Of a stretch of 10,154 nt of DNA, positions 352-3,884 are shown one piece after another (positions within the stretch are counted from its first letter, which is position 1; each line of letters starts with the position of its first letter). Source of the DNA: a virus; the UHGV virus genome UHGV-1550841; one strand, 5' to 3'. Below the pieces are notes generated by a model. The model saw only the letters and a program-made list of their open reading frames with translations. It made no database searches and was not told the origin of the DNA. A program made the translations under genes and the position numbers.

Positions 352-380
352 CATGGCATTTTTCATGGTACTGATTTCCG

Positions 381-390
381 GTGACGGTAT
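381..390 (+). repeat. GTGACGGTAT 10-mer copy 1 (candidate integrase arm-type site)
   Basis: Exact 10-mer. Further exact copies at 603-612 (+), 838-847 (+), 928-937 (+) and 1181-1190 (-), plus a 9/10 copy at 633-642 (-). Confidence 0.4.
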
Positions 391-432
391 ATAAAACGGT
401 ACGGTGAAAAGCGGCTGTGATAAACTTGTTAT

Positions 433-469
433 CACTCAATTGGTTATGTCTATCGTAAATAATTGAGTG
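433..469. repeat. Perfect 9-bp inverted repeat CACTCAATT-N19-AATTGAGTG (candidate att core or protein-binding site)
   Basis: Arms at 433-441 and 461-469 are exact reverse complements. Lies between the lysis cassette and the integrase, flanked by GTGACGGTAT repeats. Confidence 0.35.
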
Positions 470-523
470 GGAATGATTAACAGCTAACTCATAGCAAATC
501 ATTTCTATTCAGATGTCAACTTA

Positions 524-555
524 ACCCTCTGTTTTTGCAGAGGGTTTTTGTTTTT
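524..555 (+). terminator. Rho-independent terminator downstream of the Rz/Rz1 cassette
   Basis: Perfect 8-bp stem ACCCTCTG (524-531) / CAGAGGGT (538-545), 6-nt loop, then TTTTTGTTTTT. Confidence 0.6.
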
Positions 556-602
556 ATGTATTCATTTCTATTCACTCTACACCATATTTTTTGGCGGTAC
601 AG

Positions 603-612
603 GTGACGGTAT
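603..612 (+). repeat. GTGACGGTAT 10-mer copy 2 (candidate integrase arm-type site)
   Basis: Exact 10-mer, 57 bp upstream of the integrase GTG start and abutting an operator-like palindrome. Confidence 0.4.
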
Positions 613-626
613 TACCTTAAAGGTAT
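612..626. promoter_or_regulatory. Operator-like palindrome TTACC-TTAAA-GGTAT (9/10 to TTACC-N5-GGTAA) upstream of int
   Basis: Overlaps a possible -10 (TATACT, 624-629) about 40 bp upstream of the integrase start. Confidence 0.3.
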
Positions 627-632
627 ACTCTC

Positions 633-642
633 ATACCGTCAT
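633..642 (-). repeat. ATGACGGTAT (9/10 copy of the GTGACGGTAT motif, inverted orientation)
   Basis: Plus strand reads ATACCGTCAT. Forms an inverted pair with the copy at 603-612. Confidence 0.3.
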
Positions 643-668
643 GAAAATGGTTTCTATACGGGTGAATT

Positions 669-3635: not shown

Positions 3636-3884
3636 TCATGCAGCGTTGCTCACGGGACGATATACACGTTGCTGAACAGGAGGCTTTTTACCCTGGAACT
3701 CTGCCGGGCTTGCTGCCTGACGTTCATCAAGCCAACGCTCAACTTCATCACGGTTCCATGCGCAGCGTTTATCGGTGATATACCAGCGTTTAGGAAATTC
3801 CCCTGCGCGCTCCATACGGTCGATAGTGCTCCATGACAGTGGCACCACCGCCAGGAGTTCTTTCTTACCTAATGCACCTTTCAT
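3636..3884 (-). CDS. AlpA/Xis-like small DNA-binding protein (putative excisionase or prophage regulator)
   Basis: 82 aa. The segment LLAVVPLSWSTIDRMERAGEFPKRWYITDKRCAWNRDEVERWLDE matches the AlpA/excisionase-type winged-helix pattern. Good SD (AGAGGT) 5-6 nt upstream of ATG 3884. Confidence 0.65.
   Translation of the reverse strand: MKGALGKKELLAVVPLSWSTIDRMERAGEFPKRWYITDKRCAWNRDEVERWLDERQAASPAEFQGKKPPVQQRVYRPVSNAA

Follow-up and report, generated by a model that had tools for sequence, protein, structure and literature searches.

Genes and features at the locus

The window, which is the whole stretch of 10,154 nucleotides that we analyzed from a viral genome (UHGV-1550841), begins within a lysis gene. 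This is the 3′ part of an Rz-like i-spanin gene (1-351, + strand; Pfam DUF2514, E = 1.3e-31; an Rz-like spanin in phiV10 and epsilon15). Its stop codon lies at 349-351, and it is the last gene of the late/lysis operon and is transcribed towards the attP region that we describe below. An Rz1-like o-spanin gene is embedded within it in the +1 frame (68-343, + strand); it encodes a signal peptide and a lipobox (LAGC), and its position is that of phiV10p30a. A gap of 317 bp (352-668) follows, and then int (669-1925, + strand), which encodes a tyrosine integrase and starts with GTG at 669. The original prediction held that this gap has phage DNA on both flanks, and this is correct: Rz/Rz1 lies to the left and int to the right. 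We rejected the idea that an antisense open reading frame across the left edge of the gap (248-502, − strand) is a hidden gene, for example for an excisionase, because Pfam gives no match to it, the records of relatives do not annotate it, and a patch of poor conservation lies within it.

By megablast against phage records, phiV10, vB_EcoP_ZX5, the O157 typing phages 9 and 10, PAS61, and others are 96-97% identical to the window (for phiV10, vB_EcoP_ZX5, and related phages, this holds from Rz through attP to int and in the early region), epsilon15 and SPN1S are about 84% identical, and Uetakeviruses of Enterobacter and Klebsiella are 77-80% identical. The phiV10-like phages cover 84-91% of the window at 97% identity, and across the stretch from Rz through the gap to int the nucleotide identity is 96% for phiV10 and 84% for epsilon15. 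Judging from these matches, the window is DNA of a Uetakevirus, that is, a temperate podophage of the phiV10/epsilon15 type. (Positions 1-48, within Rz, fall outside the match to phiV10-type phages, which indicates a mosaic boundary inside the spanin gene.) The annotated relatives have the order endolysin, Rz/Rz1, a gap with a terminator, int, and early genes, and the order in the window is identical. As the records of phiV10 and epsilon15 show the same arrangement, lysis-att-int is the normal order for Uetakeviruses.

The integrase has the Pfam domains Arm-DNA-bind_3 (E = 4e-20, at the N terminus), Phage_int_M, and Phage_integrase; the gene is about 96% identical to phiV10 int at the nucleotide level, and the matches in the PDB are the N-terminal domains of CP4-like integrases and lambda Int. 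With arm-binding, central, and catalytic domains, it is by its domain content a heterobivalent integrase of the lambda/P4 kind. A consensus scan of positions 1-2000 found no sigma-70 promoter for int. (By eye there is a weak candidate, for which we make no claim, with a −10 element TATACT at 624-629 and a poor −35 element that overlaps an arm site at a spacing of 15 bp.) About 1.7 kb past the int stop codon, between a PerC-like gene and recT, an open reading frame (3636-3884, − strand) encodes a small HTH DNA-binding protein of the AlpA family (Pfam Phage_AlpA, 24.2 bits against a cut-off of 21), and we consider it a plausible candidate for the excisionase (recombination directionality factor). 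Relatives of the integrase in IMG/VR were of little use for studying divergence: the 80 loci that we kept are 98-100% identical and most of them begin at int. Some of them have the attP configuration and others the attL one, and one is a deletion variant.

A 17-bp core shared with the end of guaA

The original prediction placed an attP between the lysis cassette and int and left it to alignment with host genomes to find the block of identity with attB. We ran this alignment, and the block lies inside the gap, at 462-478 (+ strand), and corresponds to the 3′ end of guaA. More precisely, we aligned four sequences: the window, one guaA-int junction from E. coli (attL), one Rz-yfgI junction from E. 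coli (attR), and the empty site of E. coli K-12 (attB). A single block, the 17-mer ATTGAGTGGGAATGATT, is common to all four, with mismatches directly outside both of its edges. It contains the codons ATT GAG TGG GAA (which encode IEWE, the last four residues of GuaA), the TGA stop codon at 474-476, and then TT, and 190 bp lie between its end at 478 and the start of int at 669. On this alignment, strand exchange must fall inside 462-478.

The element is present in about 570 of 5426 complete E. coli genomes (about 10%), and its junctions are consistent. On the int side, the match to the window starts at 462 and guaA lies directly upstream, ending at window position 476. On the Rz side, the match stops at 478 and is followed by the normal downstream region of guaA and by yfgI, which is the usual downstream neighbor of guaA in E. 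coli. The mapping of the core to 462-478 rests on the point inside the region at which host homology begins in about 560 E. coli lysogens. In a Klebsiella prophage, the junction likewise lies beside the GMP synthase gene. GuaA should be unchanged after insertion, as the phage copy supplies its last four codons and the stop codon.

These results agree with what has been reported for a close relative. In vB_EcoP_ZX5, the same 17-mer, 190 bp upstream of int, is the attP; the attB is the 3′ end of guaA; and attB, attL, and attR were verified by PCR and Sanger sequencing (PMC9782041). The same site is stated there to be proven for phiV10 and epsilon15 (PMC9782041). We are therefore highly confident that 352-668 is the attP region of a Uetakevirus, and that its integrase recombines the 17-bp core with the identical end of guaA; none of our results speaks against this assignment. 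The original prediction did not locate the core, and the inverted repeat that it singled out instead overlaps the core by its right arm only.

Within the core, we propose a layout with core-type half-sites (458-478): C would be AATAATT (458-464), the 7-bp overlap GAGTGGG (465-471), and C′ AATGATT (472-478). The position of the overlap is inferred from the half-sites, which by eye match as inverted repeats at 6 of 7 positions in attP and 5 of 7 in attB (chance alone could produce such a match with non-negligible probability), and by analogy to GIsul2. The layout is consistent with three observations: 455-461 is invariant, the right half-site lies wholly inside the block of identity, and GIsul2 recombines at GAGTGGGA. 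Indeed, all of 455-477 is invariant in eight phages, though 455-461 is not shared with attB.

Because the integrase resembles those of P4, one might expect that the phage inserts into a tRNA or tmRNA gene and that the true core lies elsewhere, and the conserved-domain annotation of the phiV10 integrase is indeed INT_P4-like. But ARAGORN finds no tRNA or tmRNA gene in the window, an Rfam scan at a permissive threshold gives a single match at chance level (25.7 bits against a gathering score of 141), and all of the mapped junctions are at guaA, as in the literature (PMC9782041; PMC8138268), so we give this idea almost no weight. The original prediction had found no tRNA-like 3′ end here and had suggested a tRNA search; the ARAGORN run bears out the first point, and attB is the 3′ end of a protein-coding gene. 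Annotators may take from this that tRNA genes are not the only targets of P4-like integrases.

Putative arm-type sites

The motif GTGACGGTAT is a good candidate for the arm-type sites of this integrase. It has 6 matches in the window where 0.35 are expected, and none of 200 shuffled sequences reached 6. Exact copies lie at 381-390 and 603-612, an inverted copy with one mismatch lies at 633-642, and int itself contains three more, at 838-847, 928-937, and 1181-1190. The original prediction had remarked on repeats in the gap, and the three copies there are the repeats of an enriched motif.

We also examined conservation, in an alignment of nine sequences (the window, phiV10, epsilon15, SPN1S, PAT1, Tyrion, BUCT554, BUCT711, and a Klebsiella attL). 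Outside of coding sequence, the longest blocks without any variation are 455-477, 381-401, 604-616, 568-579, and the stem of the terminator that is discussed below. Of these, 381-401, 455-477, and 604-616 are invariant across eight attP sequences from phages of four host genera. Among the E. coli phages, the divergent patch is at about 403-428, in the P arm, and the other differences are single substitutions.

Based on the enrichment, the invariance, and the placement of the copies, we conclude that the GTGACGGTAT repeats on either side of the core are putative arm-type sites for the N-terminal domain of the integrase. The P arm would have one such site (378-401, + strand), which comprises the copy at 381-390 and a half-copy, ACGGTA, at 396-401. 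The P′ arm would have a site at 603-612 (+ strand) and an inverted site, ATGACGGTAT on the minus strand, at 633-642; these two form a palindrome just upstream of int. The GenBank record of epsilon15 (AY150271.2) has an integrase-binding annotation at the equivalent of 378-401. Indeed, that record already marks integrase, IHF, and terminator sites, and two of its integrase sites are inside int.

The copies inside int may also be under selection as DNA. The first (838-849, + strand) extends to GTGACGGTATCA, which encodes RDGI and is a 12-nucleotide run that is invariant in all nine sequences; it is an integrase site in the epsilon15 record. The second (928-937, + strand) is invariant at 930-937 and is also annotated in epsilon15. 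Finally, a palindromic pair of half-motifs, CGGTACATACCGAC (967-980), is the longest invariant run (14 nucleotides) in the first 552 nucleotides of int. In other words, the two longest invariant runs in that part of the gene, CGGTACATACCGAC and GTGACGGTATCA, both contain the arm motif. Only 22% of the third-codon positions there are invariant among the nine sequences, and in a permutation test, two runs with at least four invariant third positions had P of about 0.03. This suggests that the copies inside int may be functional and constrained at the level of DNA, possibly for additional binding of integrase or for autoregulation.

The inverted repeat and the predicted hairpins

The original prediction drew attention to a perfect 9-bp inverted repeat with a 19-bp spacer at 433-469, and its coordinates are exact: CACTCAATT at 433-441 and AATTGAGTG at 461-469. 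The repeat can be extended to 14 nucleotides at 86% complementarity. Both of its arms bear IHF-like motifs with one mismatch to WATCAANNNNTTR, and the right arm overlaps the core. In all, three overlapping IHF-like motifs (430-442, 434-446, and 456-468) lie at the repeat, so that the feature as a whole spans 430-469. IHF-like matches are not enriched across the window (14 versus 10.6 expected), but three of them cluster at 430-468; this clustering alone is suggestive. The epsilon15 record has IHF sites, as an unproven annotation, at the equivalents of 430-452 and 450-472. The left arm is partly conserved, as CAGTCAATT or AATTCAATA, in relatives. As the left arm of epsilon15 is degenerate (AATTCAATA), only the E. 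coli phages have the repeat in its perfect 9-bp form. We read the inverted repeat as protein-binding DNA beside the core and not as the site of crossover. If IHF binds to the motifs next to the core, then it would probably bend the DNA to build the intasome. (In one IMG/VR genome, UViG_3300007747_000006, at about 1260-1310, roughly 57 bp are missing between the P-arm site, which ends in AACGGTACTAGAAAAAT, and the core. Without this stretch, neither the left arm of the repeat nor the IHF-like motifs are present; the loss may have happened in nature or in the assembly.)

To the right of the core are two conserved copies of TCATTTCTATTCA, one on each side of the terminator, both of which resemble the core in inverted orientation, though imperfectly. 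The first (at 499-511, within an element at 497-511, + strand) matches at 12 of 15 positions and can pair with 464-478; the element is conserved as TCATWTCTAYTCA in relatives. The resulting hairpin (464-511) has 15 pairs and covers the core and the guaA stop codon. The second copy (562-574) is followed by an invariant CTCTA, and the feature (562-579, + strand) is invariant at 568-579.

An alternative view is that the inverted repeat at 433-469 or the hairpins (its own or that of 464-511) are the functional center of the region, either as the place of crossover or as a structure for RNA processing or regulation. The predicted folds are strong: as RNA, the inverted repeat folds with −15.4 kcal/mol (z = −5.05) and the 464-511 hairpin with −18.3 kcal/mol (z = −4.7). 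Both hairpins use the core, and integration separates them; the epsilon15 record also places RNase III sites at positions that correspond to 483-519 and 604-642. Nevertheless, we consider this unlikely. First, crossover is confined to the 17 bp of identity, and the left arm at 433-441 lies outside of it. Second, a spacer of 19 bp does not fit the core of a tyrosine recombinase. Third, the left arm varies without compensation, as its partner in the core is fixed, and the substitutions in the right hairpin among relatives improve some pairs and break others. Finally, the RNase III annotations of epsilon15 are predictions.

Free phage genome or prophage

An intact attP such as that of the window has two possible sources, a phage genome in free or circular form and the boundary of two prophages in tandem; the site is an attP either way. 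The original prediction had offered a free-phage attP or a lysis-att-int order as alternatives, and both hold together: the attP is unrecombined and the order is standard for a Uetakevirus.

Could the window come from the internal junction of two prophages that are integrated in tandem at guaA? The sequence of such a junction would be exactly attP. Tandem arrangements do exist, as six E. coli chromosomes have an uninterrupted Rz-attP-int, and NZ_CP148463.1 can be read through as yfgI-attR-prophage-attP-prophage-attL-guaA. But these are rare (about 6 of 570 lysogen genomes), and genomes sequenced from virions are in many cases contiguous here in the same way, so we think that a tandem origin is improbable. 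In any case, the sequence is the same for both origins, and the site is attP in both. (In the chromosome that we read through, from E. coli Z1323CEC0007, two prophage copies lie in tandem at 3,557,200-3,637,400 and are annotated with identical sets of protein accessions; the strain is a double lysogen.)

The window is almost certainly not a prophage end, either attL or attR, with host DNA starting inside 352-668: the core does equal host guaA sequence, but to the left of 462 are the phage P arm and Rz, not guaA, and to the right of 478 are the P′ arm and int, not the yfgI side. The original prediction had named host homology that begins inside the gap, with no phage sequence beyond it, as the mark of an attL, and the window has phage sequence on both sides of the core.

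The phage terminator and its proposed swap with that of guaA

The P′ arm contains a Rho-independent terminator (523-556, + strand), with a stem of 10 pairs at 523-546 and a run of T to 556, which is annotated in phiV10 and epsilon15 as well. Its predicted fold has −16.2 kcal/mol (z = −5.9; none of 200 shuffled sequences folded as well), and it is the strong terminator that had been noted at 524-555.

Integration should swap terminators because guaA and the late operon both read into the core in the same direction. At attL, the phage terminator lies 47 nucleotides past the guaA stop codon, and at attR, the host's guaA terminator follows Rz. So, the terminator at 523-556 would stop transcription of the late operon before integration and that of guaBA after it, and the host's guaA terminator would end the lysis operon at attR.

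The two strands of the phage terminator stem, AACCCTCTG and CAGAGGGTT, are identical to those of the guaA terminator of E. coli K-12, and the stem is kept in all of the Uetakeviruses that we examined. In contrast, the sampled genomes of Citrobacter, Enterobacter, and Raoultella have a different stem after guaA (AAGCCCGCG...). Phages of Klebsiella, Enterobacter, and Salmonella keep the phage stem, whereas the sampled relatives of the first two host genera differ downstream of guaA (Salmonella hosts were not in the sample). We rejected the idea that the likeness is a general property of guaA terminators because words of more than low complexity (CAGAGGGTTTTT and AACCCTCTGTT) are shared by E. coli K-12 alone among 114 sampled regions past the core; the others share only T-rich words. 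By a rough estimate, which is itself an inference, a 10-mer match between two windows of about 80 nucleotides would arise by chance less than 1% of the time.

The likeness of the stems hints at an ancient capture of a host guaA 3′ region. A broader version of this idea is that the P′ arm is a captured and diverged guaA 3′ UTR of the host, that the terminator swap is a designed feature, and that the copies of the motif inside int serve to autoregulate the integrase. We view this combination as possible, although we would sooner bet against it. If the P′ arm was captured, then swapping equivalent terminators would leave neither guaBA nor the phage late operon without a proper terminator. Under the same reading, the arm also has the inverted copies resembling the core, which fold back onto the stop codon of guaA.

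guaA as a target in other genomes

To see how widely the core is available, we scanned for exact matches to the 17-mer, with one genome per species, and found at least 120 loci. The 17-mer is the end of a GuaA homolog (...TIEWE*) in at least 105 of the 120 matches listed. Among the matches listed, those that end guaA span the Gamma-, Beta-, and Alphaproteobacteria, Clostridia, cyanobacteria, and archaea, and the C-terminus IEWE closes guaA in every guaA-flanked one. Because the 17-mer ends guaA in many phyla, the target of the phage is about as conserved as a tRNA gene. Its constancy across phyla would also explain why guaA is a recurrent hotspot for the insertion of phages, islands, and ICEs.

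In 31 of the 120 species listed, a homolog of the window's integrase starts about 300 bp downstream of the 17-mer. These homologs are 43-69% identical over the aligned stretch (some of the matches are partial). The epsilon15 integrase has been placed in an "epsilon15 cluster" of tyrosine recombinases of the IntSXT type, all of which target the 3′ flank of guaA (PMC8138268), and integrases of this cluster adjoin guaA across the Proteobacteria. Streptococcal ICEs also use the 3′ end of guaA.

Part of the arm motif recurs in some guaA islands. ACGGTAT starts 127 bp past the core in the window and at the same offset in guaA islands of alpha-proteobacteria whose integrases are 44-51% identical; the inverted copy is at +164 in related islands versus +154 in the window. 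Across the 30 integrase-bearing guaA loci that we tested, ACGGTAT is enriched 29-fold in the 420 bp after the core, and 12 of the 30 have it at recurrent fixed offsets (+115, +127, −164, +191, and others). The loci with fixed offsets are a subset from the Alpha- and Betaproteobacteria.

A separate observation concerns four loci in metagenome-assembled genomes of Beta- and Gammaproteobacteria, where a copy of the 17-mer has a left flank that is not guaA; the right flank is of the host type in three of the four. At two of the four loci (one of them with a host-type right flank), guaA lies 1.2-1.7 kb upstream of the copy. The copies that are not flanked by guaA look like the attR ends of small or decayed guaA islands.

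Comparison with known systems

Publications on phiV10, epsilon15, and vB_EcoP_ZX5 have already described the core of this attP, its target in guaA, and the order of the genes. One paper reports the same site (PMC9782041) and another the targeting of the guaA 3′ flank (PMC8138268), and the epsilon15 record marks the sub-sites. So, the site is of little importance as a discovery, and the terminator that resembles the host's, like the copies of the motif within int, is a detail of a well-understood kind of system. The practical use is in annotation: the exact boundaries of these prophages, a family that is found in about 10% of complete E. coli genomes, are the direct repeats of ATTGAGTGGGAATGATT at guaA and yfgI.

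The closest systems are phiV10 and vB_EcoP_ZX5, whose attP has the same core (attgagtgggaatgatt), the same 190 bp to int, an attB in guaA, and the order Rz/Rz1-attP-int. At about 96% identity, they differ from the window only at the strain level, by the patch at about 403-428 and single substitutions. The epsilon15 attP has reportedly been treated by Kropinski et al. in 2007. It has the same core, terminator stem, and arm repeats at equivalent positions, including two inside int (AY150271.2), but it is about 84% identical to the window and the left arm of its inverted repeat is degenerate.

Among the mobile elements of the epsilon15 cluster, GIsul2 recombines at GAGTGGGA in the end of guaA, a sequence that lies inside the window's core. 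GIsul2, CMGI-3, and similar elements of the epsilon15 cluster are islands or ICEs and not podophages, and many lack the arm motif GACGGTAT.

The attP of lambda resembles the window in having a heterobivalent integrase, a short block of identity with the proposed overlap within it, AT-rich IHF-like sites beside the core, and arm-type repeats on both arms, which in the window extend over about 265 bp. Unlike in lambda, int in the window is read away from attP, attB is in the end of a gene, and the arm motif is different. The window also differs in having copies of the motif inside int and an AlpA-type candidate excisionase about 1.7 kb past the int stop codon. Finally, the modules of P4 and CP4-57 are like the window in that attP is just upstream of int, the arm-binding domain is of the DUF4102 type, and there is a small regulator of the AlpA/Vis type, but the target in the window is guaA and not a tRNA or tmRNA gene.
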